This document shows positions 26,263-60,114 of a DNA stretch of 64,000 nucleotides, piece by piece (position 1 is the stretch's first letter; each line of letters opens with the position of its first letter). The stretch is taken from NCBI GenBank assembly GCA_963664115.2, contig CAXWPJ010000002.1:832001-896000 (forward strand), read 5' to 3'. The position numbers and the translations under genes were made by a program. Origin of the DNA: Terriglobia bacterium. Lineage in GTDB: Bacteria > Acidobacteriota > Terriglobia > 20CM-2-55-15. Under the pieces are notes generated by a model. The model had not been told where the DNA came from. It made no database searches and worked only from the letters and a program-made list of their open reading frames with translations.

Positions 26263-26652
26263 ATGAAAATGAAAGTTGTGGGAATCATACTGTTTGGAAT
26301 ATTTGCCGGAGGTGTCCCCGTTAACGGACACCACTCTTTTGCTGCGGTATTTGATGCCAACGACCCGATTAATCTGACTGGGACCGTGACCAAGGTCGAG
26401 TGGATGAACCCCCACATCTGGTTCTACATTGACGTTGAGAACGAGCGTGGCGAGATCGAAAACTGGGGTTTGGAGATGGGTGGCCCCAACGGTTTGATGC
26501 GTCAAGGTTGGAACCGCAACACACTGCAGGTAGGCGACGTGGTTACCGTAGTCGGCTCCCGAGCAAGGAATGGCAGCTTCAACGGGGCTGGCCAGACCGT
26601 CACGCTTTCGACGGGTCAAACTCTATTTGCCGGCCAAAACCCAAACAACTAG
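26263..26652 (+). CDS. DUF6152 family secreted protein
   Basis: Signal peptide then HHSFAAVFD; WMNPH; WGLE; SD GGAGG before ATG 26263. Confidence 0.85.
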   Translation: MKMKVVGIILFGIFAGGVPVNGHHSFAAVFDANDPINLTGTVTKVEWMNPHIWFYIDVENERGEIENWGLEMGGPNGLMRQGWNRNTLQVGDVVTVVGSRARNGSFNGAGQTVTLSTGQTLFAGQNPNN

Positions 26653-26820
26653 CGGGTTCGGCACTGGCCGCATTCTAAGAACGCTCTCCACAAGACGTAC
26701 ACTGAAGAGAAACAACTCCGCTTGGTCAAGTGCCGGGAACTCCTGTCGAGAATTTTCACGCACCTGACGAATTTGTAGTTCAGCATGATTTCGAATTGAG
26801 CCGCTCGTTGCGGCCAAGGA

Positions 26821-27645
26821 GTGACGATGATGCGACTATCTCCAAGTGCTCGTAGACGTTTGAGAGCGCAGACGATGGTGGCAGTGATCCTGGTCATGGC
26901 GTGGCCGATCGGCCTTTCTGCTCAGTGGATCAGTCTCCCCCTGCCGGACACGCCCCGCACCTCTGACGGGGCACCAGATCTGACGGCCCCGGCGCCGACC
27001 ACCGATGGCGGCCGACCTGATCTGACCGGCATTTGGAGGAGAGTCCGGGGTATCAACACGCCGCTCGAAAACCCGGCGCGCCTTCCTGGTCGAATGGAGT
27101 ATTTCCTGCCGCAGGACGAGGAGATCCCCTTGCGACCTGAAGGGGCCGCCCTTTATCAGGAACGCACGGATAACCTGGGAGGTGGAAGGCCATCCGAGCG
27201 GTGCCTGCCCCATGGGATCCCGGATGCGATGTTGTACGGCGGACCTATGAAGATCGTGCAAACTGAGAACCTCGCTATCATTCTCTTCGAGGCATTCACC
27301 AACTACAGACAGATTCATACGGACGGCCGATCCTTTCCTCAGAACGATCCGCAGCCGACCTGGTTCGGCTATTCCCTGGGGCGCTGGGACGGTGACACTT
27401 TTGTTGTCGAGACGATGGGCTTCAACGACAGGACATGGATGGACGATAGCGGCTTGCCTCACAGTGAGTCGTTGAAGACGACGGAGCGGTTTCGGCGTCG
27501 GGACTTCGGGCACATGGATCTCGAAATCACGTTCGACGATCCCGAATTGTACACAAGACCGTGGTTGGTCAATTTGGCCTTTGACCTTTGGCCTGATACA
27601 GAGTTGATTGAAAATATTTGTGAAAACGAGAAAGACGCAGGGTGA
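26821..27645 (+). CDS. Secreted hypothetical protein (DUF6152-partner family)
   Basis: PDLTGIW, RCLPHG, GYSLGRWDGDTFVVET, TERFRR, ENICENEKD; start uncertain. Confidence 0.8.
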   Translation: MTMMRLSPSARRRLRAQTMVAVILVMAWPIGLSAQWISLPLPDTPRTSDGAPDLTAPAPTTDGGRPDLTGIWRRVRGINTPLENPARLPGRMEYFLPQDEEIPLRPEGAALYQERTDNLGGGRPSERCLPHGIPDAMLYGGPMKIVQTENLAIILFEAFTNYRQIHTDGRSFPQNDPQPTWFGYSLGRWDGDTFVVETMGFNDRTWMDDSGLPHSESLKTTERFRRRDFGHMDLEITFDDPELYTRPWLVNLAFDLWPDTELIENICENEKDAG

Positions 27646-27678
27646 CCGCCCGATGGCCAGCTGCGACAGGTCTCGTCT

Positions 27679-28431
27679 TTATGGTTCGGGTTCCGCGCCA
27701 GCGGCCATCAATATGTCTACGATATCGTCGTAGTATCTCTCGTCGGCGAAACCCAAAGCGGTCCGGCCATTGTTGAGTCGTGCGTTCACATCAGCCCCTG
27801 CATCGAGCAAAGCTTGCAGGGTTTCGGTATAACCGCCACCTGCCGCATTCATCAAGGCTGTCGCGCCACTATTGCCTGTTGCATTCACGTCGACCCCGGC
27901 ATCGAGCAGAGCTTGAACGGTTTCGGTGTGACCGCCACCTACCGCATCCATCAAGGCTGTCGCCCCCGTGTTGCCTGTTGCATTCACGTCGGCTCCCGCA
28001 CCGAGCAGGGCTTGGAGGGTTTCAGTGTGACCGCCAGCTGCCGCGTTCATCAAGACGGTCATTTCCAGGCCGACTCTCGCATTCACATCGGCCCCGGAAT
28101 CGAGCAGGGCTTGGAGGGTTTCGGTGTGACCGCCACCTGCCGCATTCGTCAAGGCTGTCACGCCATTGTCGCTTCTCGCATTCGCGTCGGCCCCGGCATC
28201 GAGCAAGGTCTGGAGGGTTTCGGTGTGACCGCCAAGCGCAGCAAACATTAATGTTGTCACGCCATTTTCGCTTCTCGCATTCACGTCGGCCCCGGCATCG
28301 AGCAGGGCCTGGACAGCGTTCGTGTCGCCATTTTCAGCAGCTCTGAACAACCCAATACCGGGATCATCCGCACAGGCTGTAAGCGAAAGCAGGAGGGACG
28401 TTATCAATACAGTTTTGGGCAGTCGTAGCAT
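27679..28431 (-). CDS. Ankyrin-repeat lipoprotein
   Basis: Lipobox LTAC; about six 33-aa G.TALM.AA.GGHTETLQALLDAGADVNA repeats; SD AAGGAGAGG before ATG 28431. Confidence 0.92.
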   Translation of the reverse strand: MLRLPKTVLITSLLLSLTACADDPGIGLFRAAENGDTNAVQALLDAGADVNARSENGVTTLMFAALGGHTETLQTLLDAGADANARSDNGVTALTNAAGGGHTETLQALLDSGADVNARVGLEMTVLMNAAAGGHTETLQALLGAGADVNATGNTGATALMDAVGGGHTETVQALLDAGVDVNATGNSGATALMNAAGGGYTETLQALLDAGADVNARLNNGRTALGFADERYYDDIVDILMAAGAEPEP

Positions 28432-29122
28432 GAGGCCTCTCCTTAGCAGCCGGGGATATGAAATTCGCGCAAATTCTAAAGATCCAATACCTGGCCAACC
28501 GATCCCATCACGTCCATTAACTTCAAAGAACGCGCGGGTGGCCGGTGGTTCAGTCAGCTCACAGCCTGGGTCCCACGCTCTATCCGGCCCCGACGCTGAG
28601 GGTCTGCGCCCGGACGCTTGGAGAGTTCCCGATAGAGACTTCACGACCGGGTTTCGTGTCCTTTGCCGTTCGCCTTTCTCCCATGCCACTCTTTCCGCGG
28701 TTAGGACTGCGTCTCGTCATGTCCGAGTCTGGTACCGGATTCCGGTCGTTATAGTGCGTGTCGAAAGCAACTGTGAAAATCAGGCTAAATCTAACTACAG
28801 ATGGGATTTATACGCAAGAAAAGTCTCAATAATTGTATTTGATCCATGGTTATCCCAGCCCTTGCTTCGGTGCTTCAAATCAGACCTGCACGATGTTGAC
28901 TTTGTGCGAGCGCAAAGTGTCTCCAGTTTGAATCCATGCCGCCGGCCCAAAGGCCGGCATTTGTCGACCGCCGAGTGTTGGGCCTTAGTTGCGCCATTGG
29001 TTGGGATGTTCGCTTCCCCCTGCACACGAGGCGCCGAACGCCATGCCAGGTTCCTACGCTGCAATTTTTTGAACGTGTTAGATTCGCTTAAAGAACAACT
29101 CCAGTCCCGAGGGAAATGGATC

Positions 29123-30115
29123 ATGAGATTGATATTGCCGCTTATCGCCGTGAACATTCTGTGCGCCTTTTCTGCATCTGCGCATCACAGCCCTGCAAGT
29201 TTTAATATGGCATCAGTCGTGGCCATCCAGGGCAGGGTGAGTCGAGTCGACTGGGGAAACCCGCACGTCTATTTCGGCGTCGAGATCACGAACGATGCGG
29301 GTGAAGCACTGGAGTGGCTCGTTGAAACAGATCCAACGTCAATCTTGATCCGGAATGGTTGGACTGCGGAATCGTTGACGCCTGGGGACCGGATCACCTT
29401 GCGTGCCCATCCCGACAGGAATGCTCAACGGAACCATGCCTTACTCATATCCGTGGCAACTGAAAATGGTGTCGTCTTGACACCACGATCAAGCGGCGTA
29501 GAAACTGCGTCACCTGCCTCCAGTCTCTCGGGCGTGTGGGACGCCATGCGGGGATTCAGCCGAAGGCCGGCCATTGATGGCGTGTTGACCGAAAAGGGCA
29601 GGGTCGCGGATGCAGCCTTTAGCGAATTGGACAGCCCGGCAGCAAACTGTGTCCCGCACCCAGCGCCGTTTCTTCATGTCTTACCTTATTTGAACGAAAT
29701 CGAAGTGGGCGACGATACCGTGACAATTCGGAGTGAGTTCTTCAGGGTCGACCGGGTCGTGTATATGGACGGACGCGGACATCCCGCCAACGGCGTGCGT
29801 AGCAACCAGGGCCATTCGATCGGCTGGTGGGAGGACGACGTACTCGTCGTTGACACGACGCTTTTTGAGGACCATCGGACAGGCAATCGGACAGCCAATC
29901 TTCCGGGTGCACCCTCCGGAGCGCAGAAGCATGTCATTGAAAGATATGAGCTGAGCCCAGACGCGACTCGGCTTACCCTCACCTTCTCTGTTGAGGATCC
30001 TGAGTACCTGGCGGAACCGATGACCGGTAGTGTGGAATGGGACTATGCGCCGGGGTTCGAGTTATTGCGGTTCGACTGCGATCCTGAGATAGCGAGCCGC
30101 TATAGGTTTCAGTGA
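29123..30115 (+). CDS. Fusion of DUF6152 domain and its partner domain, secreted
   Basis: Signal ASA then HHSPASF, WGNPH, WLVE; followed by LSGVW, NCVP, GHSIGWWEDDVLVVDT, IERYEL, FDCDPE; the ORF-track extension to 28322 looks spurious. Confidence 0.82.
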   Translation: MRLILPLIAVNILCAFSASAHHSPASFNMASVVAIQGRVSRVDWGNPHVYFGVEITNDAGEALEWLVETDPTSILIRNGWTAESLTPGDRITLRAHPDRNAQRNHALLISVATENGVVLTPRSSGVETASPASSLSGVWDAMRGFSRRPAIDGVLTEKGRVADAAFSELDSPAANCVPHPAPFLHVLPYLNEIEVGDDTVTIRSEFFRVDRVVYMDGRGHPANGVRSNQGHSIGWWEDDVLVVDTTLFEDHRTGNRTANLPGAPSGAQKHVIERYELSPDATRLTLTFSVEDPEYLAEPMTGSVEWDYAPGFELLRFDCDPEIASRYRFQ

Positions 30116-30692: not shown

Positions 30693-32864
30693 TTATTTGG
30701 CGAGTGGGTCGGGACGAAGCTGGAAGTGCATCACTTTGCTCGTCGTCCCTTTGCCGCCCTCCATGTGGAAGGGTGTCCGGGTGCTCACGGTCGACCAGAG
30801 TCCCTTGCCTTTCCAGCCGATGTTCGGATCGTCGATACGCCCATCCATCCATTTTGTATAGAACCCTAAGGGATAAGGGACGCGAAGAATGACCCATTCG
30901 CCGTCCTTGAGCGCCAGTAGTCCTCCGGACGCATTGCCCGTGTTGATCGGCACGTTTGCGCCCAGCCCGAGCGTATCGAACTGATCGACCCAGGTGTAAT
31001 AGCTGGACTCGGCGCTCCCGGAATCCGTGACCCCCTTCATTTGCGGTAGAGGCTCCGTATAGAAGGTCCACCCTTCCGGACAGTGTTGCCCGGTCGCCGC
31101 CGGCCCGTTTAGCGGTCCCTCGCATTTGCGACGATCAAAACTGGCAAGATGTCCGCTGGCCAGAGCGGCCCAATAGACACCGTTGCGGTCCACGTCTCCT
31201 CCACGGGGTGAAAATCCCTGAACGGGGACTTCCGGGCTGTCCAGGGGCAGCTCGTACACTTCCGCGAGCGCGGTCTCCGGCGGGTTCGTCCCCGGATCCA
31301 GCCGTACGACAGCGCCTGGAAAGTCGAGGGCCGTTCCCCAGACCGAGCCGTCGGGTGCCGGGGAAACGGCGTAGAAGGCCCGGCCGAATCGCGTGTCCTT
31401 GGCGGGATCGGGCGCTTCGTCGGGTTCTACATACGCGTCTCTCCGGCCGTTGCCGTTCGTGTCCATGATCAGGGCGGTCCAGCCCTGCGACCTCTGCTCA
31501 TCGCCGGTCTCCTCGAACATCCGGGTGTTCAACCAACCGACGACCTGGCCGCCACCGCTGGTCCAGAGCGTGTTGTCGGCGTCCTCGGCGAACATCAGGT
31601 GGTGTGTGCCGAAACAAGTACTGATATGGGTGAGCTGTTCAGTTTCCTGGTTGTACATGGCGAGGTGCCGTCGGGCGCCCTCGAGCGGGAACAACTCGGC
31701 CGACGGATGATCCGATCCTTCCCTGCAAAAGTCCGGATTATCGGAGGGGCGCACCGACGAGGTGATCCAGACCTGGCCTTTCTCGTCGATCATCGGATTG
31801 TGGACGTTGTTCTTGCTGTCCCAGAGAACCTCATCGCCCCAGTACGGCGAAGGCTCAGGCATCCTTGGCGATGTCGCCGGTGTCTCCGGGTCGCGGACTG
31901 TCAAGGCCGCCCGGCTTGCAGTGTGGGTCACCGGATCCAGAATGGGGAGATAGTCCGCGCTGAGTTCAAGCGCTCCGTATATGGGTCCGTAGGCATTGAC
32001 CGTGGGGTTACGCCTGTCGGTCGCGACCTGGTCATGGAGGTAGTCGGTCGGGTCGGCCCAGTCCCACTGAGTGATGACGATGTTGCGTTCCTCGCCTTGG
32101 GGTCGGGGTGGTTGGGTGGGCAGCTCGCCGGCCCCGATGCGGTCGGTCCAGTCCGCGAACATCTCGAGCGCCCGCCCTCGGCCAAGCCGGTTAACGCCGT
32201 TGTTCATCCCGCCGCCAGCCTGTCCGGACTGTATACGCCGGTCCCAAGCGGCCACTGAGGAATCAAAAGTGCCGAGGCTGTCCGGTATCTCGCGGGTCGC
32301 CTTGTTGCCCAGTTGATGACAGGCCATGCAGCCACCCGACTTCACATACCTAAGCCATTCGGCCTGGCTTCTGATATTCATCGAAATGCCGTTGCCATCG
32401 GGCCCGGTGCCGGGGAACTCGCTCTTGTCCGGCGGCTGGAGCAGAGAAAACCAGTAACCGGCCGGATAGTATTCCGCCGCCGCACGAGCATCCGGCGCCT
32501 GCACCGAGGTCAGGTTCACGATCCGGCCCGGCGCGGTCTGAATCTTTGGCGAATCCACCAAGCCGTAGCCACGTACCCAGACGCTGTAATCCGCATTCGG
32601 AAGGTCAGGCAACAGGTAGCGACCCTGGTCATCGGTGACCACGATCTTGACGAACTTGGTGGGTAGATCCATGGTTTCCGCGATCACCCACACACCCGCT
32701 TCCGGCCCGTTCGCGCCCGTGACAACGCCACCGAGGTCGTCATTGTCGATGTCGACCGCCTGGGGCGTGACTTGGCCAGCGCTCATCCCGACCGGCGATG
32801 CAGCCACCAGCACCGCGCCGAGGACGGCTACAATGCCGAAACCCACCATTGTTCTCATCGTCAT
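30693..32864 (-). CDS. Secreted carboxypeptidase-regulatory-like domain + monoheme c (CxxCH) + beta-propeller protein
   Basis: GPEAGVWVIAET, VVTDDQGRYLLPDLP, VWVRGYGLVDS, CMACHQLG, C-terminal FQLRPDPLAK; SD AAGGAG before ATG 32864. Confidence 0.85.
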   Translation of the reverse strand: MTMRTMVGFGIVAVLGAVLVAASPVGMSAGQVTPQAVDIDNDDLGGVVTGANGPEAGVWVIAETMDLPTKFVKIVVTDDQGRYLLPDLPNADYSVWVRGYGLVDSPKIQTAPGRIVNLTSVQAPDARAAAEYYPAGYWFSLLQPPDKSEFPGTGPDGNGISMNIRSQAEWLRYVKSGGCMACHQLGNKATREIPDSLGTFDSSVAAWDRRIQSGQAGGGMNNGVNRLGRGRALEMFADWTDRIGAGELPTQPPRPQGEERNIVITQWDWADPTDYLHDQVATDRRNPTVNAYGPIYGALELSADYLPILDPVTHTASRAALTVRDPETPATSPRMPEPSPYWGDEVLWDSKNNVHNPMIDEKGQVWITSSVRPSDNPDFCREGSDHPSAELFPLEGARRHLAMYNQETEQLTHISTCFGTHHLMFAEDADNTLWTSGGGQVVGWLNTRMFEETGDEQRSQGWTALIMDTNGNGRRDAYVEPDEAPDPAKDTRFGRAFYAVSPAPDGSVWGTALDFPGAVVRLDPGTNPPETALAEVYELPLDSPEVPVQGFSPRGGDVDRNGVYWAALASGHLASFDRRKCEGPLNGPAATGQHCPEGWTFYTEPLPQMKGVTDSGSAESSYYTWVDQFDTLGLGANVPINTGNASGGLLALKDGEWVILRVPYPLGFYTKWMDGRIDDPNIGWKGKGLWSTVSTRTPFHMEGGKGTTSKVMHFQLRPDPLAK

Positions 32865-33179
32865 GTCAGATCTCCTTTTTGCTGTCGCCCCGCTGGGCCA
32901 AGGTACATCGATCCAGCTGTTTCGGGGGAGCAAGTCACGTGTCTGTTGCGGGCGTCACTTCTCCCCTGCCCCGAATCGAGTGCGTCGGTTCAGTTACTGG
33001 GGACGAGTGTTGTGCCTTTCGCAAGGGCCAGAACTCTCCACCCCACGGCTCTCGTTCGTAAAGTGAGAAACTGGAGAAAGTTTATAGAACGAGCGGGTTG
33101 GAAGCAACGATTCGTCGACTCCCGACCAGGGGATTTATTAGCTCACGGAGCATCGCTGGCGCTGCACACACAGGCCCCG

Positions 33180-37132: not shown

Positions 37133-38287
37133 ATGGCCAACGAAAAACATCTCGAAGTTCTGAAACAAGGAGTCGGGGCTTTGAATAGGTGGCGGTGGAA
37201 GCATCCGGGGGGTCTGCTGAACCTCAGGGACGCGAACCTCTTCAAGGCGAAGCTATATCGCGCAAACCTCAGTCACGCGAACCTCAGCCGCGCGAATCTC
37301 GAAGCAGCGAAGCTGCACCACGCGAACCTCAGCGAAGCGAAGCTCAATGCGGCGAAGCTATACGACGCGGACCTCAGCGACGCGGACCTCAGTCGCGCCA
37401 ACCTCGAAGCAGCGAAGCTGTACCACGCGAACCTCACCGGCGCGGACCTCAGTCGCGCGGATCTCACCGGCGCGAACCTCACCGGCGCCAACCTGGTCGA
37501 TACGAAGCTGGTAGGGGCAGACCTGTGCGGGACGAAACTGGAATACGCACTTCTGGGGGAAACGATCTTCAGCAATACCCGGCTGGTGGACACGGAAGGT
37601 CTGAGTGCGTGTAAGCATGTTTTTCCTTGCACGTTGGATCACAGGACCCTCATTAAATCAGGCGAATTGCCGACGGAGTTTACCCGCGGTTGTGGCCTTC
37701 ACGACTGGCAGGTCGAGTCGGCGAAGTTGCTGAACCCAAAGTTGACGCCACGGGAAATCACAGAGATCGTCTTTCGAGTCGACGCACTGCGTTCGGAATC
37801 GCGGATAATCCCTACAAACTTGTTCATTTCCTATTCGCACTGGGACGCAAAATTCGCAGACCATCTTCAGGATTCATTCAAAGAGAGACGGATTCTGTCT
37901 TGGCGGGACGCACACGAAGAGCCAGCAGGCCCACTCGACAAGATCGTTAGTCGAGCTATGCGAGACAATCCCACGGTTCTGCTCGTTCTTTCAGAACGCT
38001 CCGTGGAAAAGGATTGGGTGAAAATTGAAGCCAGGAAGGCACGGGAGTTGGAAAAAGACTTGGGTCGGCACGTCTTGTATCCGATCGCGTTGGACGATTC
38101 CTGGAAGACCTCTGCGTGGTCTTCAGTGATGCGCGGTCAGGTCAAGAAGGCCAACGTTCTGAATTTCTCGCAATGGGAAAAACCCGAGGCGTTCTGTGAG
38201 GTGTTGAACAGGCTACTGTCTGGGATTGAGGTGTACAACTCGGAGAATGATGGGGACGCTATCATCCCACCAACGTGTGCTGCATAA
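37133..38287 (+). CDS. Pentapeptide-repeat + TIR domain protein
   Basis: A(N/D)LxxA(N/K)L repeats; C-terminal LFISYSH...LLVLSERSVEKDWVKIE...LYPIALDD TIR_2 motifs; SD GAGG. Confidence 0.9.
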   Translation: MANEKHLEVLKQGVGALNRWRWKHPGGLLNLRDANLFKAKLYRANLSHANLSRANLEAAKLHHANLSEAKLNAAKLYDADLSDADLSRANLEAAKLYHANLTGADLSRADLTGANLTGANLVDTKLVGADLCGTKLEYALLGETIFSNTRLVDTEGLSACKHVFPCTLDHRTLIKSGELPTEFTRGCGLHDWQVESAKLLNPKLTPREITEIVFRVDALRSESRIIPTNLFISYSHWDAKFADHLQDSFKERRILSWRDAHEEPAGPLDKIVSRAMRDNPTVLLVLSERSVEKDWVKIEARKARELEKDLGRHVLYPIALDDSWKTSAWSSVMRGQVKKANVLNFSQWEKPEAFCEVLNRLLSGIEVYNSENDGDAIIPPTCAA

Positions 38288-43944: not shown

Positions 43945-43954
43945 AGACACCTCG

Positions 43955-45369: not shown

Positions 45370-45417
45370 GTAAGTCGTTTATTGAGAGGGTTGGTGTGAC
45401 AGCGGTGGTCGCACTAC

Positions 45418-45454
45418 TTGGCATCGGGGCCGGCTCTCTCGGACATTGTCGTCC
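45418..45454 (+). promoter_or_regulatory. ANTAR-target dual hexaloop RNA motif
   Basis: GGC-ATCGGG-GCC and GGAC-ATTGTC-GTCC: two short stems with 6-nt loops having A1 and G4, 9-nt linker; second stem overlaps terminator. Confidence 0.72.
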
Positions 45455-45495
45455 ATGGTGCGTAGTTTCTTGACGCGCCCTGGGCGTTTTTTTTT
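45450..45495 (+). terminator. Intrinsic terminator/attenuator before the NifA-like gene
   Basis: CGTCCATGGTGCGT-loop-ACGCGCCCTGGGCG stem followed by T9. Confidence 0.8.
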
Positions 45496-45506
45496 GCTGT
45501 TTTCGT

Positions 45507-47084
45507 ATGCGGGATCAGGATTTGAGTACACGTTTGTCGGACGGTAGAACGATGGGTCGATCGGGCGCTGAACAGCTCGAAGCGCTCGTCGAGATTGGAG
45601 ATGCGCTTTCTGCGGCGCTGTCCCCGGCGAGGGCTTTCGAGGGTGTTCTGGAGGTTCTGGAACGCAGGCGAGGCGCCATGCGTGGCGCGGTCACGCTCTT
45701 AAACAGTAAGTCCGGCGAGATTCAGATTGAGGCCTCAAGTGGCCTGAGTGCCGCAGGGAGGGCGGCGCGATACCGGCTGGGCGAGGGGATCATGGGACGC
45801 GTGGTTGAAAGCGGGAAGCCTATCGTGGTTCCCCAAGTGAGTCGCGAGCCTACCTTTTTAAACCGGGCAGGTCAACGCCAGGATCTGCACAAGAAGGAAC
45901 TCACCTATCTGTGTGTCCCAATTTTCGTCAACGGACGTTCCGTTGGCGCGCTCGGTGTGGACCTGAAGTATGCCGAAAGCCGGGATTACGACTCAGAGTT
46001 GAACTGTCTTAAAGTGGCGGCGGCGATGATGGCTCAGGCGATCAAAGCCGATCACCTGGTCGATGAAGAGCGCCGTCGTTTGAAGGACGAGAATACTCAC
46101 CTGCTTGAGGAACTGAAAGAGAAATACGAATTCTCGGGGATCATTGGCACGACCGGCGCGATGCGCCAGGTGTATGAACAAGTGGCCCAGGTCGCGCATA
46201 CAAAAACCACGGTCGTGATTCGGGGAGAGTCCGGCACCGGCAAGGAACTGATCGCGCACGCGATTCACTACAACTCCCCTCGGGCGGAAAAGCCCTTCAT
46301 CAAAGTCAATTGCGCAGCTCTGCCTGAAACTTTGATCGAGTCCGAGTTATTTGGTTACGAGCGAGGCGCATTTACCGGCGCCTCCGCGCGCAAGAAGGGC
46401 CGCTTCGAACTTGCCGAGGGCGGCACACTTTTCCTGGACGAAATCGGTGAAATTAAAGTCGCAACACAGGTGAAACTGCTGCGGGCGCTGCAGGAACGGG
46501 AATTTGAGCGCCTGGGTGGTACCGAAACGATTCGGGTCAATGTCCGGCTCATTGCGGCGACGAATAAAGATCTTGAGCAGGCGATCGCAGACGGCACGTT
46601 CCGCGAAGATCTCTACTATCGGCTTAACGTTTTTTCAATCGCTGTGCCTCCCTTACGGGAACGTAAGACCGATCTGTTGTTGTTGGCGGATCACTTTCTG
46701 CAAAAATGTTCCAAGGACCACAAGAAAGGGATTCGCCGCATATCGACTGCGGCCATCGACATGTTCATGAGCTATCACTGGCCTGGAAACGTCAGGGAAT
46801 TGGAGAACGTGATCGAGCGCGCCGTTTTGGTTTGCGGCGACGGCGGCGTCATTCATGGCCATCACCTGCCGCCGACGCTGCAGACCGCGCAGGCTTCGGG
46901 AACAATGCCAAGTCTTTCGCTATCCGAAGCTGTGGAGGCCTATGAGAGGGACATTCTTCTGGATTCGCTGAAGTCGACGCAAGGAAACCGCGCTCAGGCC
47001 GCGCGGCTTCTCGGCACAACCGCCCGCATCCTCAACTACAAGGTTCGCAAATACGGAATCGACAACCGACGATTTGCCCGATAA
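45507..47084 (+). CDS. NifA-like GAF-AAA+-HTH sigma54 enhancer-binding protein
   Basis: GAF domain (YRLGEGIMGRV, FLNR, LCVPI); GESGTGKE, ESELFGYERGAFTGA, WPGNVRELEN; Fis-type HTH. Confidence 0.93.
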   Translation: MRDQDLSTRLSDGRTMGRSGAEQLEALVEIGDALSAALSPARAFEGVLEVLERRRGAMRGAVTLLNSKSGEIQIEASSGLSAAGRAARYRLGEGIMGRVVESGKPIVVPQVSREPTFLNRAGQRQDLHKKELTYLCVPIFVNGRSVGALGVDLKYAESRDYDSELNCLKVAAAMMAQAIKADHLVDEERRRLKDENTHLLEELKEKYEFSGIIGTTGAMRQVYEQVAQVAHTKTTVVIRGESGTGKELIAHAIHYNSPRAEKPFIKVNCAALPETLIESELFGYERGAFTGASARKKGRFELAEGGTLFLDEIGEIKVATQVKLLRALQEREFERLGGTETIRVNVRLIAATNKDLEQAIADGTFREDLYYRLNVFSIAVPPLRERKTDLLLLADHFLQKCSKDHKKGIRRISTAAIDMFMSYHWPGNVRELENVIERAVLVCGDGGVIHGHHLPPTLQTAQASGTMPSLSLSEAVEAYERDILLDSLKSTQGNRAQAARLLGTTARILNYKVRKYGIDNRRFAR

Positions 47085-51958: not shown

Positions 51959-54112
51959 TCACTTCGCCAGAGGGTTCGGGCGCAGTCGAAATTGCACGAT
52001 ACCGGCCCGCGTTCCCTGTCCGGTTTCTGCAAGCCAGGAAGCCCGTGTTCCGTTCACCGCCCACAGCCCGCGTCCCTTCCAACCCGCCTCCGGATCGTCA
52101 ATCCGACCGTCGAGACCCCGCGGGTTGAATCCGTTCAGAGGGTATGGAACCTGTAACGTGATCCACTCTCCTGTATCGGGCCGTAGGACCTGGATCGAGT
52201 CTGACGCGGAACCCGCCGCGAACTGCGTGTTTTCTCCGAGACCGAAAACATTTTTCTGGTCCGACCAGTTGTAGTAAAAAAAATCTGCTTTACCGGTTGC
52301 ATCCCCTTTGAGTCTGGGGCCTGGCGCGGGATATAGCGTCCAGCCTTCGGGGCAGTGTCGCCCCGCCGCCGCCGCCTCGCCAGTCAGCACGTTGCACTTG
52401 TTCCGGTCGAAGCTGGCGAGGTGACCACTCACCAGAGCTGTCCAGATCAGTCCGTTCGTGTCGGCATCGATGCCACGAGGGAAATAGCTGTGTTTTTCTG
52501 GGGCGCTGGGCTCGTCAAAAGGAAGTTCATAGACTTCTGCGGTGCAGGACTCCGGTACATCCTTATCACGAATGTTGAAGCGGAATATCTTCCCTGGAAT
52601 TCCGGGTGCTGCAGCCCAAATCGTCCCGTCTACCGGATTTTCAATGACGCTGTAGAGGCTCCCCCGGAGTTTCACATCAACGCTGGGATCGGTTCGCCCA
52701 TCACCGTTGATGTCAAAGTAAGCCTGGCACCAACCTTGGGCCTGCTGGGAGTCACCTGTTTCGTCCAGAAGTCGCGTGTTGATCCAACCGATCGTGGCGT
52801 CCTGATCACCGAGACCATTGAAATAGGCTGTGTTGTCTGCGTCATCGGCGAATCGAACGTGATGGGTGCGGAAACAAGTACCGATGGGCGTGATTGTTTC
52901 CGTGTCAGGGTCATAGTATGCGGCGTGCCGGGTGCTGGCTTCGAGAGGGAAGAGCTGAGCGAATGCGTTATCGGAGCCTTCACGACACCATGCGGGATTC
53001 TGCCTGCCGCGAACGGCAGTGGCCATCCAAACCCTTCCGTTCTGATCCAGCATAAGGTTGTTTGGGTTCTGGTGGTCCGCGAAAAGCACTTCGTCGCCCC
53101 AATAGGGTGAAGGCGTATCCATCTCCAGGGGCGTGAAGGTTCTCATTTCGCTTGTGTCCACGAGCGTCGGAATCGTCATCGATTCCCAGGTATGTTCATT
53201 GGGGTCGAGGATTACGAGTGTGCCATGGTGGAAATCAACCCCATAAACCATTCCCTGACCGTTCACCTGAGGATTCCGTTTGTCGGTCGTGGCGATGTCG
53301 TGCATGAACGGCGTCTCGGTTGAGACTTCCCACATCGAGAGCACCACGTTCCGTTCCAGTCCCTGCGGTCGCGGTGGGATGGGCGGGAGCTCACCCCCTG
53401 CGATTCGGTCCGTCCAGTCCGAAAACATCTTTAACCCCAACTCCCGGCCAAAACCATCGAACTGCCCCCCCATTCGTGAACCGATCTGCCCCGATCTGAC
53501 GCGCCTGTCCCATGCAGCCAGGGACGTTTCATGCTCCGCAAGCAACTGAGGCGAAAGCTTGCGGATGCTGGCAGCGCCCAGGGCGTGACAGGTGTTGCAC
53601 TGTTTGACGGCCGAAACCCATTCGGCCTAGTTCTCATGCTCACCCAGCGGGAACGTGTATTCTGGAGGAACCTGGATCAGGGAAAACCAATAGTGGGGTG
53701 GATAGTACTCAGCCGCAGCTTGAGGGTCCGGTGCCAGTACCGCGGTCAGTGCTAATGTCTCACCGGGCCTTGCCTCGACCGGTTCCGAATCCACGAGTCC
53801 GTATCCACGCACCCAGATCCTGTAAGTTGCGTCTGGCAGATCTGGAAGCAGATACCGTCCTTGATCGTCGGTGACCACGATCTCCCGGAACAACGTCTCT
53901 AGATCCGTCGTTTCAGCGATGACCCAAACACCGGCCTCGGGTCCCGTCGCTCCCAGGACGCCGCCGCCAACATCATCCGCGTCAATCCCGACCTCAGACC
54001 CAAGCTGGGAGGAGATACTCCATCGCGGGATCAACCCGACGCAAGCCATCACGACCAGACACGGTAGCGCTTTCTTCAGCCACCCAACCCTTCCCTGTAA
54101 GCCGTTCTTCAT
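51959..54112 (-). pseudogene. Paralog of the 30693-32864 CxxCH/beta-propeller gene interrupted by one in-frame TAG
   Basis: ORFs 53627-54118 and 51959-53545 share a frame; junction reads GEHEN*AEWVSAVKQCNTCHALG versus paralog IRSQAEWLRYVKSGGCMACHQLG. Confidence 0.85.
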
Positions 54113-54204
54113 GATCACGTGTCCTCAAGCAGCGGTTTCGGGTGCGGATTGACCGTCCGACCGCCGAATAAAAATCGTCATGAAATACTTTTGAGAAATG
54201 CGGG

Positions 54205-55050
54205 CTAAGGATCCACGCCAAGGCTTCCAGGAAGCAAGAATCGGGTATTGTGATCATCCACTTCGTTCATCGGTGCGCAGATCGATTCCCAGACGCCAGA
54301 GAACAACCCCGACCATCCAAAGAACGTCACGTCCTCGGGAGGCATTCGCGAGAAGGTCTTGCGGTTACCCACCCAGGGTGCGGTATACAGTGCCGGATCA
54401 TGAAGCGTCAGTTGAACCTCCAGCGTATCGGCGTCGATCCGCTCCCATCGCTCTTCGATCCGTGTTTGCAAACTCACAGGATGACCCTGACCATCGAGCC
54501 ACGCTCTATCGTCAAGACCCACTGTATTGACGACAAGGATCTCTCCTTCCCATTCGGCAACGGAGTGCCCGTACCAAGCCGGCCCAAGATTGTCGAGGTT
54601 CTCGCCTGTAGGGAGATCGCGTCCGTCCAGCCAGACTTCGCGCAGGACCCGTTCCCACTGAAACAGTTGCAGTATCCTCCCCTCAAGGTGGGCGAATTCA
54701 AAGGGGTAGGTGCCGGTGTAAAGGATCCGTGGAAAACCACTCGGATTGCACCGGTATTTCGGGTCGTTCGAATACACCGGCAAAGGGACGTCACCGGTGC
54801 CCACACGCCCGCTCATTTTTTCAATACCTTCCCTCGTCAGGGGTGGCATACCCGGTGACGGGCCTATCCCCCCACCGCCTCCAGTCCTGACCCAGAGTCC
54901 GGACAGATCATGTGTGTCGCTTTGTATCGCAGCTGTTTCACGAGGCGCGGGTTCGGTTTTCGAAAGCGGGACGGCTCTCCCAAACCCTGCCGACAAAAAG
55001 AATAGCGCGGCCCCTACGGCAGTCATTGAGCTTGTCGAACGAATTCGCAT
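54205..55050 (-). CDS. Secreted hypothetical protein (DUF6152-partner family)
   Basis: HDLSGLW, RCNPSGFPR, GHSVAEWEGEILVVNT, EERWER, ESICAP; SD AAGGAG. Confidence 0.82.
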   Translation of the reverse strand: MRIRSTSSMTAVGAALFFLSAGFGRAVPLSKTEPAPRETAAIQSDTHDLSGLWVRTGGGGGIGPSPGMPPLTREGIEKMSGRVGTGDVPLPVYSNDPKYRCNPSGFPRILYTGTYPFEFAHLEGRILQLFQWERVLREVWLDGRDLPTGENLDNLGPAWYGHSVAEWEGEILVVNTVGLDDRAWLDGQGHPVSLQTRIEERWERIDADTLEVQLTLHDPALYTAPWVGNRKTFSRMPPEDVTFFGWSGLFSGVWESICAPMNEVDDHNTRFLLPGSLGVDP

Positions 55051-55148: not shown

Positions 55149-55550
55149 CTAATCGACGGGGTTTTCCCCGCTGCGGCGGGACATTATTTCTGTGCCGTCT
55201 TCAAGAATAACGACCACCACAATGCCCAAAGGCGCGCCTGCAGCCGAGGGATTCACGATTGCGGTTATGTCCTGTCCTATCTTCAGCGTATTCCTGTTGT
55301 AGCCCTCACGGGCCAGCGTGCTGACGCTGGCGTTTTCGAATCCCCAGGTGACCACTTCACCGTTATCGCCCACCACGTCCATATAGATGACGACGTGCGG
55401 ATTGCGCCAACCCACTTCCGACACCCTTCCCGTCAAGGTGACCTCGTGCTGCATGTCAAACATCTGCCCCCTGCCGTGATGCGCGAACAGCGGAGGGGAG
55501 CTGATCAACAGCACCCACAGCAACATACATAATGGAAGCGCTCTCTTCAT
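55149..55550 (-). CDS. DUF6152 family secreted protein
   Basis: Signal ending LFA then HHGRGQMFD; WRNPH; WGFE; SD AGGAGG. Confidence 0.85.
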   Translation of the reverse strand: MKRALPLCMLLWVLLISSPPLFAHHGRGQMFDMQHEVTLTGRVSEVGWRNPHVVIYMDVVGDNGEVVTWGFENASVSTLAREGYNRNTLKIGQDITAIVNPSAAGAPLGIVVVVILEDGTEIMSRRSGENPVD

Positions 55551-55600: not shown

Positions 55601-56548
55601 TCACCGGTACCAGGACCTCAAGCGAACCTCCACGTCTTCGCTACTGAGAGCATCTACAAATTCCTGGAGATCCTGACTGATGTAATGATATGGGTACACG
55701 GTGGCCGGTCCAAAAGCTTTGACACATTCGGCCGACGCCGGGGCAGTCATCGTGGAGAACGGATCCGCGGGCAGGAAAGCGATGTCAATATCCTGGAGCT
55801 GCCTGATTTCAGGGACGCATTCGGTATCTCCCGACACGAAAACCCGGGTATCTGCAAATGTCAGGACATATCCGTTCCCGCGACCACGGGGATGCATGAG
55901 CCGGGCTTGCGGACCGGTCTGCAGGTTGTAAGCCGCAACGGCTTCGATTCCGATATCAATTCCCTGAAGATCCACCCTTATCGAGTCGCCGTTCGCCAGG
56001 ACCTGAACGTCTTCGATCGTGGCTGCTTCATTCTCCCGTCGATCGATCACGACGGCATTTCCTCCCGCGGCGCCGGCCGCTATCCTGCGGGCCACTGCCT
56101 CAGGCGCCACGATTACTGTAGCTTCCTTATAAAGATCGGCCACCGTCAATGGCCCGAAGTGATCGCCGTGAGTATCGGTGATCAGGATCAGGTCCGCCTT
56201 TCTCATCCCGGAATAATCACCCGTCGGATCCACGTGGATCGTCCTGCCGCAGAACTCCAGCATCAGGCTGGCGTGGATGATAGGCGTAATCGTCAATACC
56301 CCTGTTGAAGTCGTCACCGCGTCCGACTCCGTCGGGTTATGCGTAGTGGTTTGAGCGCTCCCTGTGACCCGACTCGGCGCTGCCATAGCCACCAGATCCC
56401 TGTCCGAAAACGTGGCGTCGCACAGCGGTGCCTGCCCAGGTGCCGGCATCGCCGACAGGTCGGAAGCCGAGAGCAATACGCTTAAGAACGCTCCCCACAT
56501 AAAAAACGTCCTAAGAGACGACAGGCTACTTTTCAAATTAGCTTCCAT
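55601..56548 (-). CDS. Secreted MBL-fold metallo-hydrolase (UlaG/Lactamase_B_3-like)
   Basis: HASLML, HVDP, LITDTHGDH, AYN...HPRGRGNGYVL, SGDTE, VYPYHY. Confidence 0.85.
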   Translation of the reverse strand: MEANLKSSLSSLRTFFMWGAFLSVLLSASDLSAMPAPGQAPLCDATFSDRDLVAMAAPSRVTGSAQTTTHNPTESDAVTTSTGVLTITPIIHASLMLEFCGRTIHVDPTGDYSGMRKADLILITDTHGDHFGPLTVADLYKEATVIVAPEAVARRIAAGAAGGNAVVIDRRENEAATIEDVQVLANGDSIRVDLQGIDIGIEAVAAYNLQTGPQARLMHPRGRGNGYVLTFADTRVFVSGDTECVPEIRQLQDIDIAFLPADPFSTMTAPASAECVKAFGPATVYPYHYISQDLQEFVDALSSEDVEVRLRSWYR

Positions 56549-56759
56549 TGGTTTTCTCCTGCGTTCGCCTACTATACATCCCATCCACTATGAAAGAGCG
56601 ATAAGGGAAACGGCTCCACGCTCACGAATCCCGGCATCGCCGACTTATGGCGGCGACCAGGGGGGACCGACCGAAGGACCCTACCCTTAAATGCCAAGAT
56701 GTGCTGTGAAACGCCAAGAAATGCCCGCAGCTGAAGTTGGAGAACGTGGAACAGCGAAA

Positions 56760-57638
56760 CTAAGGATCCACACCAAAGCTTCCAGGCACCATGAATCGGG
56801 TGGTGTGATCGTCCACCTCGTTCATCGGTGCGCAGATTGATTCCCAAACACCGGAAAACAAACCATACCATCCAAAAAAGGTCGCGTCTTCGCGCGACAT
56901 TCGCGTGTAGGTTTTGCGGTCACCCACCCACGGCGCGGTATACATTGTCGAATCATGAAGGGTCAACTGAACCTCGAGGGTATCGGCGTCAATCCGATCC
57001 CATCGCTCTTCGATCCGTGTTTGCAAACTCAAAGGATGACCCTGACCATCGAGCCACGCTCTATCATCCAGGCCAACCGTGTTGACGACAAGGGTGTCGC
57101 CTTCCCACTCGGCAACGGAGTGTCCATACCATGCCGGCCCAAGATTATCGAGGTTCTCACCTGAGGGCAGGTCGCGCCCGTCCATCCAGACTTCACGCAG
57201 GACCCGCTCCCACTGAAACAGTTGCAACAGCCTCCCCTCGAGCCCGGCGAATTCGAATGGGTAGGCACTGGTGTAGAGGATCCGGGGAAAGCCACTCGGA
57301 TTGCACTTAAACTTCGGATCGTTTGAAAACACCGGCAGGGGGAGATCGTTTGTTCCCACACGCCCGCCCATTTTTGCCACGCCCTCTGGGGTCAGGGGAG
57401 GCATACTCGCTGCCGGGCCGATCCAATCCGTGCGGAAACGCCCTCGAACCGCGGCAGTAGCGTCCGGGTCGGTCCTTACCCAGAGTCCAGTCAAATCGTG
57501 CGGATCAAATTGTTGTGCAAGGGCTTCCGGACCCGCGGATTCCTTTTCTGAAAGCGACATGGCCTCCCCGAACCCTGCCAACAAAAAGAACAGCGCAGCG
57601 AATACGGGAGCGATTGAGCTTGTAGAACGAATTTGCAT
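56760..57638 (-). CDS. Secreted hypothetical protein (DUF6152-partner family), close paralog of 54205-55050
   Basis: Long near-identical stretches, e.g. QLFQWERVLREVW, ENLDNLGPAWYGHSVAEWEG, GLFSGVWESICAPMNEVDDH. Confidence 0.85.
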   Translation of the reverse strand: MQIRSTSSIAPVFAALFFLLAGFGEAMSLSEKESAGPEALAQQFDPHDLTGLWVRTDPDATAAVRGRFRTDWIGPAASMPPLTPEGVAKMGGRVGTNDLPLPVFSNDPKFKCNPSGFPRILYTSAYPFEFAGLEGRLLQLFQWERVLREVWMDGRDLPSGENLDNLGPAWYGHSVAEWEGDTLVVNTVGLDDRAWLDGQGHPLSLQTRIEERWDRIDADTLEVQLTLHDSTMYTAPWVGDRKTYTRMSREDATFFGWYGLFSGVWESICAPMNEVDDHTTRFMVPGSFGVDP

Positions 57639-57789
57639 TATTGAAGCTCCTTACCCGATCCGATTGTCAGGACTCATCCGGTTCGAGGATCGCGGATCGT
57701 GTTCTTTGAAATGCCTGGTCTCGCCGAAAGGGTTTTCAACTTTCACTCTGGGGATCAATCGGGAGTTGAGCTCGCACAAGCGGGGAAGC

Positions 57790-59559
57790 CTATCCCGCTG
57801 GCACCCCTTCCTGGAGTTCCTCAAACCAGTTCCCGATGACGTTGATCTGGTCTGCCTGTGCCTCGATGTCTGAGCTTGTGGCGTCCTGGATCATCACAAA
57901 TCGCTCACCGTCTGGGGCCGGGTTGTAGGAAGCAACGTTCCCTGTGCTGGGTCGGAAACGGTCTTCAAATAGACGCCTCGGAGTGCCCGCGCTGAAGTCG
58001 GGATCTGTCTCGATGTTCACCGCCATCAACTGGTTGTCATTCATGTAAAACAATTCCCGTCCGTTTTGTGCCCAGATGGGGCCACCACCACCTTCGGTCG
58101 AGATCTGCCATTTGTTCCCGGGGCCGGGAAACGGCCGCACAAAGATTTCGTTGGAGCCAGTCTCGTTTGAGACATACGCCAGCCAGCCCCCGTCAGGCGA
58201 AAAGTTCGGCGCTGCTTCATTGAATGGCGTTTGAAGGATGGGGCGGGGTTCCCGATTGCCATCCAGTGGCATGACCCAGAGGTCACGATCCCCCGATCCG
58301 CCGACGCCGGGAATTTGATAAAAGGCCAGAAGCTGGCCGTCTCGTGACCAGGATGAGGGGTTCTGCTGCGTGAAGTCTCCCCGTGTCAACTGCTCCTCAG
58401 CGCCGCTCCCGTCCGCCCTTGTCCAGAACATGTTCCCGGTGCCTTCCCGTATTGATCGATAGCTTGCGTATTGTCCGTCCGACGACCAGATCGGTAGATT
58501 CGCCCTCGCCCCAAGAGTCACGCGGTCAAGTTCCCGCCGGTCTATATCGAACAACCAGAGGTCATCACCAATGCGGACGAGCACGCTGTTCCCATTCGGC
58601 GACACGCGGGGAAATGAGTAATTACGCGCCGGTGTTCCGAGCGGTTCCACGTTCCCCTGTCGGTCCACCCAGACAAGCGTGTTTCCACCCCCTACCCGAC
58701 CTGGAACAAACGCCAGTGCTCCGGAGTCTGATACTGCGTATTGCGGCGGTCCTGGCCGCACACCGTCGACGATCACCACGGGAGCTCCCGCAACTTCCAT
58801 GGTGATCAGATCGAACGCCACCGCGAACAGCACATCATCGACGGCATAGACAATGTGTCCGGTGGAGACATACCGGGGGCCTGTGCCTGGGAACAAGAGC
58901 TTCCTGTCCCCGGATTCGAGCGATTGGATCGCAACCTGTCCTGCATCCGCGTCGCCCACATGAAAAAGCACCGATTCTCCATCGGGCAGAATCTGGGGGT
59001 TTATAAGGTCGCTCTCCCCCCCGATCAGCACCTCCGGAGTACCGCCATTCACGGAAACTCTCATGATGCCCTCGCCCTGCCCCCACACGATCGTGTCATC
59101 GCTTCCCCAAACCGGAGCACCGAAATAAGGCTCCTCTGCACCCGAGATCGTCACAGAGGTGCCACCGCTGACGGCAATCTTCTTGAGCTGGCGATCAATT
59201 CCAGACCAATAGCCGATCCAGTCACCATCCGGCGAGAAAAATGGGACCCTCGGAAGGTCGTCCGTTCCCGAAATCGGGTTTGACCCGACACCATCCGTCG
59301 TTTTGAGGTACAGCTGTTGATTGGCGACGTACACGATTCTGGAACCGTCAGGAGAGAGGGCCACAACGGGACGGTCTGTGAACGTGAACCCCTGTCCTTC
59401 GGGCAGCACATGTTCAAAGAGGACGGGAGCAAGAGGCGCGTCTTGATTCTGGGTGCAGCCTGCGACACCGGTGATGATGGCGAGAACGACAGCCGCAAGC
59501 CGCCACACGCCGGATTGGCGGGAAGAAATCTCGTAGTAGGCACGTTTGTGTTTAATCAT
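57790..59559 (-). CDS. PD40/TolB-like double beta-propeller, probable lipoprotein
   Basis: Lipobox-like VAGC; repeated (L/F)SPDG motifs; FSPDGGWLAYVSNETG, KWQISTEGG. Confidence 0.85.
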   Translation of the reverse strand: MIKHKRAYYEISSRQSGVWRLAAVVLAIITGVAGCTQNQDAPLAPVLFEHVLPEGQGFTFTDRPVVALSPDGSRIVYVANQQLYLKTTDGVGSNPISGTDDLPRVPFFSPDGDWIGYWSGIDRQLKKIAVSGGTSVTISGAEEPYFGAPVWGSDDTIVWGQGEGIMRVSVNGGTPEVLIGGESDLINPQILPDGESVLFHVGDADAGQVAIQSLESGDRKLLFPGTGPRYVSTGHIVYAVDDVLFAVAFDLITMEVAGAPVVIVDGVRPGPPQYAVSDSGALAFVPGRVGGGNTLVWVDRQGNVEPLGTPARNYSFPRVSPNGNSVLVRIGDDLWLFDIDRRELDRVTLGARANLPIWSSDGQYASYRSIREGTGNMFWTRADGSGAEEQLTRGDFTQQNPSSWSRDGQLLAFYQIPGVGGSGDRDLWVMPLDGNREPRPILQTPFNEAAPNFSPDGGWLAYVSNETGSNEIFVRPFPGPGNKWQISTEGGGGPIWAQNGRELFYMNDNQLMAVNIETDPDFSAGTPRRLFEDRFRPSTGNVASYNPAPDGERFVMIQDATSSDIEAQADQINVIGNWFEELQEGVPAG

Positions 59560-59721
59560 GATTCGTAGCTTCCGCAGGTGTGGTCTATGACCGCACAGCT
59601 TCTGCTATTTTTGCGCTCACGCCCGAGAGGACCCGTCGAGCGCCGGTAGGCTCCATGCTAATAAATAGCCGCACCGGCGCAGTTGGGGAAAATTTACAGT
59701 GAGTTGTAGGGGTCGCAGGAA

Positions 59722-60114
59722 CTAGTCCCACTGCCTCTCGACACCGTGGCCGCGTTCCGTGTCACCGTGCATGGGCGTCACGAAGCCCAGGAGACAGCCG
59801 GGGGAACCGTCCCTGAGTTTATGACATCGCACTCGGACCGCATCACCCGAACGGAGGTCCTCGCGGCCGACTCCGCCTTCCAAGATCCCGTTAGGACCAC
59901 CGGCTTCCAGAGCCCACACTGTGGTCTCCCCTTCATCGTTCTCCATCTCCATATAGATCCAGGAATGCGGGTTGATCAAGTGTATTTCCTGAATGGTGCC
60001 CTCATAAGTAGTCCACGCCGACTGGTCGTAGGCGTTGTGGGAATGGTGTGCCGCAGCAGGTACGGCCAAGATCATGGCGCCGATCGCTATCCGGCTTAAG
60101 CATTTGAGCTGCAT
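59722..60114 (-). CDS. DUF6152 family secreted protein
   Basis: Signal ending AAA then HHSHNAYD; LINPHSW; WALE; additional Cys pair. Confidence 0.82.
   Translation of the reverse strand: MQLKCLSRIAIGAMILAVPAAAHHSHNAYDQSAWTTYEGTIQEIHLINPHSWIYMEMENDEGETTVWALEAGGPNGILEGGVGREDLRSGDAVRVRCHKLRDGSPGCLLGFVTPMHGDTERGHGVERQWD

Follow-up and report, generated by a model that had tools for sequence, protein, structure and literature searches.

DUF6152 and its barrel partner: a repeated secreted module with a putative N-terminal-histidine metal site in a Terriglobia bacterium

Introduction

What kind of protein system does a bacterium keep when the same secreted pair is encoded again and again along its chromosome? 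The question is raised by a 64,000-nucleotide stretch of a Terriglobia bacterium (assembly GCA_963664115.2, contig CAXWPJ010000002.1, positions 832,001 to 896,000; hereafter the window), in which, between positions 26,263 and 60,114, small DUF6152 proteins with a predicted His-His N-terminus stand beside a second, cysteine-containing protein. An original prediction, read from the letters of the window, had proposed an uncharacterised, expanded periplasmic metallo-heterodimer, possibly a copper-binding redox enzyme. The analysis reported here indicates that the module is a real, very large and unstudied protein system. Its two halves are predicted to form a heterodimer, and a redox metallo-enzyme at their interface is the explanation favoured below, with a confidence that falls a little short of even.

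Results and Discussion

The module in the window

Four DUF6152 (PF19649) domains are present, with Pfam E values of 3e-32 to 6e-25 and scores of 111, 88.6, 87.8 and 94.3 bits against a gathering cut-off of 27 bits. The first (26263..26652, + strand) combines a 22-residue signal with a mature sequence starting HHSF, the His1 codon lying at 26329, and carries the histidine of an NPH motif (His29) and the glutamate of a WxxE motif (Glu49); an oligonucleotide/oligosaccharide-binding (OB) fold is predicted for it from the model of the fusion described next. It sits 168 nt upstream of a partner gene without a Pfam family (26821..27645, +), whose likely start is the ATG at 26827, favoured by the ribosome-binding site, and which bears a family-invariant cysteine pair on a calycin/FABP-like barrel, this fold and its docking on the His face of DUF6152 being predictions. 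Both halves are joined in a 330-residue fusion (29123..30115, +; His1 codon at 29183). On the opposite strand, a stand-alone DUF6152 (55149..55550, -; mature start HHGR) precedes a partner (54205..55050, -) by 98 nt. A further partner (56760..57638, -), 78% identical to the latter, lies upstream of that DUF6152, across the gene of a metallo-beta-lactamase (MBL)-fold hydrolase (55601..56584, -), which thus lies between two same-strand module genes. The fourth DUF6152 (59722..60114, -) belongs to a distinct subtype and is treated separately below.

The domains and motifs named in the original prediction are readily recognized. In the alignment, the mature DUF6152 starts are HHSF, HHSP, HHGR and HHSH and all four carry xxNPH and WxxE, while L(S/T)GxW, CxP, GxSxxxW, ER and a C-terminal Cys recur in all four partner domains. 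The predicted order, DUF6152 first, holds for both stand-alone pairs and for the fusion. As a family feature, WxxE is retained only in part, since genome-wide its glutamate is found in just 98 of 123 copies. None of the three stand-alone partners matches a Pfam family at E 0.01, the fusion matches Pfam through its DUF6152 half alone, and the seven module open reading frames (ORFs) of the window find no NCBIfam match at E 1. Two metatranscriptome runs yielded only short, low-depth, identical contigs on 26334-26652, 29699-29923, 59651-59857 and 60392-60549, one of which also spans intergenic DNA. A promoter and terminator scan gave scores not above those of shuffles.

Expansion and linkage across genomes

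The scale of the system becomes evident from the whole genome (4.89 Mb, 97% complete, gene total approximated at roughly 4,800), whose ORFs of 60 residues or more in all six frames were searched with iterated profiles. By protein comparison, the closest named relative is a Terriglobia (Acidobacteriota) record at 90% identity. It holds 125 DUF6152 and 146 partner ORFs, eight of them fusions, so that 263 genes, or about one in twenty, belong to the module. DUF6152 comes first in all eight fusions, three of which are near-identical copies. Of the 117 stand-alone DUF6152 genes, 85 have a same-strand partner no more than 400 nt away, compared with a null mean of 2.2 (maximum 8 in 1000 draws), or 4.3 (maximum 12) when the null is drawn near DUF6152 loci. 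The adjacency seen in the window is therefore not a matter of chance, and the greatly expanded two-part module that had been proposed is borne out.

Among 30 relatives, which are kin and not independent, DUF6152 exceeds the cut-off in 15 and the partner is present in the same 15; 12 of these carry at least dozens to over a hundred copies, and three carry one to three DUF6152. COX1, looked for as a mark of aerobic life, is present in all 30 and does not separate carriers from non-carriers. In 79 foreign loci from Acidobacteriota, Gammaproteobacteria and a few other groups, which were chosen with one DUF6152 subtype and are related to each other, a partner match was found in 69. The barrel family itself comprises 20,932 representatives at 50% identity (E up to 0.001). 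Among 150 of these, DUF6152 stands behind the barrel in a single record (P0461), after a signal-like stretch of its own. An N-terminal position in the fusions and, P0461 apart, the lack of DUF6152 behind a barrel are what a need for a free His1 amine would predict. The possibility that DUF6152 also serves as an internal domain was dismissed after inspection of the same 150 representatives, whose C-terminal extensions are either DUF3471-like, a label taken from an ESM Atlas row and from sequence appearance, or a second barrel.

Many barrels carry such a DUF3471-resembling C-terminal domain of about 100 residues. Tandem barrel-barrel fusions are seen in P0362, P0368, P0386, P0390, P0431, P0455, P0462, P0482, P0489 and P0505, and in this genome at G000:C2:333464-335074. 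These architectures suggest barrel dimers or higher assemblies.

Export signals and conserved residues

Cleavage directly before the histidine pair, as originally predicted, agrees with the (-3,-1) signal-peptidase rule: the exact fit falls before His1 in 119 of 125 DUF6152, at position -2 in 52, and at +1 to +4 in none, the mature His1 start being a rule-based prediction. An N-terminal hydrophobic stretch is present in 123 of 125 DUF6152 and 130 of 138 stand-alone partners, with a motif resembling that of the twin-arginine pathway in five of the former and none of the latter. Taking into account these signals and the scarcity of twin-arginine-like motifs, the periplasm is the likely place where both halves fold and acquire metal.

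Conservation is concentrated in a few positions. With gapped rows excluded and a mean identity of only about 33%, the DUF6152 paralogues retain His1 in 123 of 124 copies, and His2 and the NPH histidine in 124 of 124. The partners (about 28% mean identity) retain their two cysteines in 141 of 143 and 128 of 128 copies; in their GxW motif, Gly is found in 136 of 141 rows and Trp in 121 of 151. No His column reaches 55% among the 146 partner paralogues. Semi-conserved acids near the predicted site are Glu49 of DUF6152 (the WxxE residue) and Glu123, Glu230 and Glu236 of the partner.

Predicted folds and the pair model

The mature fusion was modelled with a mean predicted local distance difference test score (pLDDT) of 90.4 and a predicted template-modelling score (pTM) of 0.86. 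Residues 5-96 (pLDDT about 90) adopt an OB fold, best compared with SSB (Z 8.7, root-mean-square deviation (rmsd) 2.9, 83 aligned) and, in Foldseek, with the OB domain of LysRS; CusF, CcmE and other periplasmic OB proteins do not appear among the listed matches, a listing that does not exclude them. Residues 113-289 form an FABP-like barrel (2qo4, Z 9.1, rmsd 3.7, 111 aligned; 5b0u, 8.8, 3.7, 119; 3ia8, 8.1, 3.3, 120). Compared with FABP-like chains, this partner half reaches Z 9.1, 8.9 and 8.8 over 111-119 residues, as a calycin/FABP-like barrel with the GxW motif in its first strand and a lid insertion; nanoKAZ luciferase and nitrobindin are tied with these matches or close to them. Identities to the solved fold matches are only 5-20%. 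When profiles of DUF6152, the partner and DUF6644 (a membrane protein discussed below) were run against the sequences of solved structures, nothing credible came back (best E 0.54, none, 1, 0.7 and 0.086), and no PDB sequence matched DUF6152 better than E 0.5. On 120 partner sequences Pfam gave only single weak matches, and the ESM Atlas gave unnamed clusters only for the partner and for the second partner family described below.

The separate chains 26263 and 26821 were also folded together with Zn, the DUF6152 chain starting at His2. The resulting pair scored 0.74 against 0.47 for the best control, with at least 74% of contacts agreeing between runs and a partner pLDDT of at least 91. Among the calibration pairs, 116 of 157 solved and 2 of 215 mismatched ones reach the mark applied; the calibration is rough here, where custom alignments and a ligand were used. 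In mature DUF6152 numbering (model numbers +1), the predicted interface involves residues 2-6, 8, 10-11, 24, 26-29, 31, 53-55, 57-58, 60, 77 and 103 of DUF6152 and residues 3, 51-55, 84-89, 91-92, 123-125, 175 and 229-237 of the partner. His2, Asn27-Pro28-His29 and partner Cys233 are all placed within it, Asn27 and Pro28 contacting the strand that bears this invariant cysteine. The remaining partner columns of the interface are highly variable, except residue 123, which is mostly acidic or amide. From FABP topology, we take the partner segments to be the lid and the open face, or mouth, of the barrel; if the clamped face is this mouth, the barrel would supply a variable substrate pocket.

The identity matrices of the two halves are correlated as well, with a Mantel rho of 0.46 for 86 de-duplicated pairs (of 94) and a null maximum of 0.14 in 500 permutations. 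Together with the fusion and pair models, this supports the heterodimer originally proposed, with the barrel predicted to clamp over the His face. Mean-field coupling on 298 pairs (of 304; effective number 181; 119 fusions) placed three of the ten top inter-chain pairs in the predicted interface, against 0.2 expected and one and none in two shuffles. Pro53-Asn231, one of the top coupled pairs, is also listed as a contact in the pair model.

A second partner for one DUF6152 clade

The fourth DUF6152 of the window differs from the others: it starts HHSH, with an extra His4 and a cysteine pair in RCH...GC, and adjoins no barrel gene. The gene that it follows (60203..60889, -; likely start ATG 60847) belongs to a second partner family, here called T, likewise without a Pfam family and with a predicted PsbP/Mog1/DcrB fold (pLDDT 93.9; Foldseek E 1.7e-5 and TM 0.47 to PsbP 2vu4). 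Consequently, the view that all four window copies represent one module type holds for the three with a barrel and has to be amended for this one. All 13 T copies in the genome lie within 1.5 kb of a DUF6152 gene and one lies near a barrel gene. Of the 11 DUF6152 adjoining T, 10 carry the cysteine pair and group in a single clade (SH-aLRT 98, quick tree), nine of them starting HHSH, compared with just 4 two-Cys proteins among 86 barrel-adjacent copies. The same is seen in 30 fetched loci with a T gene, four of them from this genome: DUF6152 is adjacent in 27 and is of the two-Cys HHSH/HHSP type in 26, with RCH in 25 of these 26 sequences. T is thus, by gene linkage, a second partner class of DUF6152. 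It shares its predicted fold with PsbP, Mog1 and DcrB proteins and differs from PsbP in its low identity (8-13% to PsbP chains), a helical insert with Cys and the link to one DUF6152 clade.

A small unnamed secreted family (about 115 mature residues, start QVGHP) was found directly upstream of DUF6152 in six proteobacterial loci (L008:4403-4903, L010:50-499, L014:1338-2024, L020:4187-4750, L035:3156-3659 and L079:233-724), with partial matches in more, and a single homologue lies near a module gene in this genome. It is a possible further partner of the module.

Companion genes

Two gene families recur near the module. DUF6644 gives 18 Pfam matches in the genome (12 over the cut-off) and 21 with its own profile, of which 14 lie within 1.5 kb of a module gene. 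Mostly these are tandem pairs of proteins of about 160 residues with invariant His, Arg, Lys, Trp and Arg (25 of 25 rows). Similarity to named families is weak: DUF2214 in 8 of 23 and, below cut-off, CopD in 3 of 23 (best E 0.0018) and HemJ/UPF0093 in 1 of 23 (E 0.064). HemJ-type membrane proteins bind haem through His and Lys; no HemJ was found in 61 genomes. Of the relatives, 14 of the 15 with the module have DUF6644, against 1 of the 15 without it. Some longer DUF6644 ORFs of 321-326 residues (regions G000:C12:260207, C5:120716 and C2:349875) carry an extra N-terminal half of about 170 residues that is unmatched by the profile.

The second companion is a secreted di-haem cytochrome c with five full-length copies, four of them no farther than 1.5 kb from a module gene; 12% of the genome is that close. 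It is present in 12 of the 79 foreign loci, in three of them directly behind DUF6152 without a nearby barrel, and in 11 of 15 module-bearing against 4 of 15 other relatives. Counted together, CxxCH ORFs show a twofold enrichment within 3 kb of module genes (p 0.0065) but not within 400 nt (p 0.5).

Two relatives with a single DUF6152 were examined. In one (G018), the order barrel-barrel-DUF6152 faces a DUF6644 pair. In the other (G025), the di-haem cytochrome is the first gene of an operon, 1 nt before a barrel gene, and three barrels, DUF6152 and a TonB-receptor-like gene follow; a DUF6644 pair lies about 3 kb beyond the cytochrome. Divergent from that pair is an unnamed secreted protein (L147:12612-13091) with a predicted mature start HEGH and a CxxxC motif, another His1 candidate.

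Copper-handling genes (two SCO matches, a multicopper oxidase and a P-type ATPase) follow no such pattern: in this one genome and small sample, one of four lies within 5 kb of a module gene, matching the chance rate of 25.5%, and CopC, CopD and PCuAC find no match in the genome. Several neighbours were named from sequence appearance. Two families of MBL-fold-like enzymes are enriched beside the module; none of the 20 genes of a TonB-receptor-like family adjoins a module gene; and NHL/PAL-like lyases, considered as dedicated partners, were dropped, 2 of 23 being next to the module (p 0.19). Among transporter, kinase and sigma-factor families, none is over-represented beside module genes here, and none occurs in more than 2 of 67 foreign-locus neighbours scanned.

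Proposed function and its alternatives

An invariant site under a variable partner, present in hundredfold copies and tied to a cytochrome, is best accounted for by a substrate-diversified redox enzyme. After Sec export, cleavage would expose His1 at the start of the small OB-fold subunit, and His1, His2 and the NPH histidine would bind one transition metal, copper being the likeliest judging from conservation and from the precedent of N-terminal-His proteins. The barrel, probably stapled by its cysteine pair, would then clamp over the His face with its lid, one beta-turn and the strand of the C-terminal Cys. Each pair was duplicated and diversified as a unit, which may have given about a hundred specificities, and one DUF6152 clade sits beside the PsbP-fold protein instead of the barrel. 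Electrons would be supplied by shared partners, namely the DUF6644 membrane pair and the secreted di-haem cytochrome c, whose linkage to the module indirectly suggests a redox enzyme. That the module is a periplasmic heterodimeric metallo-enzyme of the interface, most probably redox, is the explanation we would back first, at slightly under an even chance. A more detailed version appears possible and rather unlikely to hold in every part: DUF6152 would be an exchangeable copper-site subunit whose OB-fold His1-His2-His29 centre is buried against a calycin barrel or, in an HHSH/RCH five-His variant, against the PsbP-fold protein, with electrons supplied by the di-haem cytochrome and a haem-binding DUF6644 pair, the whole constituting a P450-like superfamily of oxygenases that act in the periplasm on dissolved organic molecules.

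Several observations weigh against such an enzyme. The pair model does not contain His1, so the placement of the His1/His2/His29 triad is not part of it; 20 of 125 DUF6152 have no adjacent partner; and the selection and kinship of the foreign loci limit what they can add. Co-diversification is also expected from joint duplication alone, and the top coupling z of 5.9 is not above those of the shuffles (6.4 and 5.8), equal scores that leave the couplings with little weight. The companions are not constant either: DUF6644 lies within 3 kb of only 10 of 125 DUF6152 and resembles CopD more often than HemJ, while the cytochrome occurs in 4 of the 15 relatives that lack the module and no copy was found in 4 of the 15 carriers. 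In G025, it is a TonB-receptor-like gene that follows DUF6152. Finally, PMC10952591 ties the non-LPMO (lytic polysaccharide monooxygenase) brace proteins mostly to copper transport, with no convincing redox activity.

This last point leads to the strongest rival, a capture and relay of copper or nickel resembling CopC/CopD or YcnI/YcnJ, in which DUF6152 would chelate the ion through His1, the barrel would either shield the ion or take it over with its cysteine pair, and import would fall to the DUF6644 pair. Most of the studied non-LPMO N-terminal-His proteins are assigned to metal capture in PMC10952591 and PMC12537917. The near-perfect co-occurrence of DUF6644 with the module, its weak CopD and DUF2214 matches and its invariant His fit this reading, as do the two single-copy genomes examined, in both of which the module lies beside a DUF6644 pair or within about 4 kb of one; with CopC, CopD and PCuAC unmatched in the genome, the module could stand in for them. 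Against it, 125 diversified copies, each matched to a partner, are more than one ion would require; in the pair model the partner covers the His face; and copper-handling genes near the module occur at the chance rate. A relay is considered rather unlikely.

The interface and diversification evidence that speaks for a redox enzyme applies equally to a non-redox one, that is, a hydrolase, hydratase or lyase with a three-His/Glu site for Zn, Co, Mn or Fe, organised like nitrile hydratase, in which two subunits close one site. The MBL-fold and amidohydrolase-like neighbours and the semi-conserved acids near the site are compatible with it. Such an enzyme, considered improbable, would leave the linkage to the di-haem cytochrome or DUF6644 unexplained, and its candidate general-base Glu is not invariant. 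Least probable of all is a family of binding proteins or receptors in the periplasm that recognise diverse organic ligands or metal chelates, with the ligand kept in the barrel, its metal or polar head at the His site and no turnover: calycin barrels are mostly carriers, the best fold matches bind bile acids, lipids and retinoids, no residue of the pocket was seen to be invariant and a TonB-receptor-like gene follows the module in G025, but transporter, kinase and sigma-factor families are not enriched nearby.

Comparison with known systems

With the histidine-brace proteins (LPMOs AA9-AA17, CopC, PmoF1, YcnI and X325/Bim1; brace as defined in PMC10952591), DUF6152 shares a predicted signal ending before a near-invariant His1 and a further invariant His that could complete a brace. 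Candidates for this second position are His2 and His29, both invariant and both located in the predicted interface of the model that lacks His1. DUF6152 departs from brace proteins in its OB fold, the extra invariant His2, a site over which a second subunit is predicted to sit and 125 copies in one genome. LPMO, CopC and YcnI have an immunoglobulin-like beta-sandwich fold. Their profiles find no match in the module; in Pfam the only match is DUF6152, NCBIfam gives none, and no CopC is found in the genome. Hence the module resembles an N-terminal-His metalloprotein but falls outside the LPMO, CopC and YcnI families.

Like CopC/CopD (YobA/YebZ) and YcnI/YcnJ, the module combines a periplasmic His1 protein with a genetically tied membrane protein, here DUF6644 with its weak similarity to CopD. 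In contrast to CopC/CopD, there is no CopC/CopD match in the genome and no link to copper genes, the membrane protein is a tandem pair of about 160-residue chains with about one pair per ten DUF6152, and barrel, PsbP-fold and cytochrome partners are added.

Signal strapping has delineated four families of His1 metalloproteins, DUF4198 (Ni), DUF6702, for which a three-His site is predicted, Ang-1 and Ang-2, according to PMC12537917. DUF6152 is likewise a bacterial secreted DUF with a conserved His1; it is a different family, is not named in the text or five supplementary files of that paper, and no barrel partner is described for the four in the passages covered. A nickel-binding member among them means that His1 does not fix the metal as copper.

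The partner shares its barrel fold with FABP/CRABP, tardigrade SAHS, nitrobindin and the 19-kDa subunit of Oplophorus luciferase (nanoKAZ), the last being a precedent for oxygenase chemistry in a calycin-type barrel. It differs from them in its identity of 11-17%, long insertions, invariant Cys pair, lack of an invariant haem His and dedicated OB-fold partner. Nitrobindin binds haem through an invariant His in its barrel, and a nitrobindin-like partner was rejected on the low His conservation given above.

In full-text literature, with subscription papers mostly outside the scope, no paper names DUF6152, DUF6644, PF19649, PF20349 or IPR046150, none joins histidine brace, OB-fold, copper and periplasmic, and none among those listed contains N-terminal His-His.

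Significance

The system is very large and unannotated, and it is carried by abundant Acidobacteriota and some Gammaproteobacteria, as the gene and cluster counts given above illustrate. If copper does sit at the His site under a pocket subunit, N-terminal-histidine chemistry would be extended to a new fold and to small-molecule substrates, each genome would hold about a hundred candidate biocatalysts, and the attack of these uncultured bacteria on diverse organic matter could be explained. Should the pairs prove to be P450-like oxygenases, they would form a superfamily with over 20,000 barrel clusters that takes up about 5% of the genes in some Acidobacteriota. A metal relay, if correct, would still be a new uptake system.

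Neighbouring genes and further observations

The genome has three secreted mono-haem c (CxxCH) genes with a carboxypeptidase-regulatory-like N-terminal domain and, judging from sequence appearance, a beta-propeller; two of them (30693-32933 and 51959-54118, both -) flank the modules of the window. The second is split into the ORFs 53627-54118 and 51959-53545; compared with the window, a DNA run of another sample shows indels of 13 nt near 53650 and of 1 nt at 52276 in this gene. Between two module loci lies a secreted-looking ankyrin-repeat protein (27679-28689, -), and the foreign locus L010 also has an ankyrin protein after its module.

Farther along, 37133-38287 (+) encodes a pentapeptide-repeat protein fused to a TIR domain (TIR_2, E 3.5e-13), possibly related to defence. 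The region 38986-47084 (+), with a molybdopterin oxidoreductase, an NAD(P)H nitrite-reductase-like protein, an MFS transporter and a GAF/sigma-54 activator, resembles an assimilatory nitrate/nitrite cluster and may function as one. Elsewhere in the genome, further expanded secreted families, again named from sequence appearance, include MBL-fold-like groups of 30, 19, 13 and 12 members, an NHL-repeat-like group of 23 and amidohydrolase-like groups of 18 and 12, and many transposase-like families are present as well.

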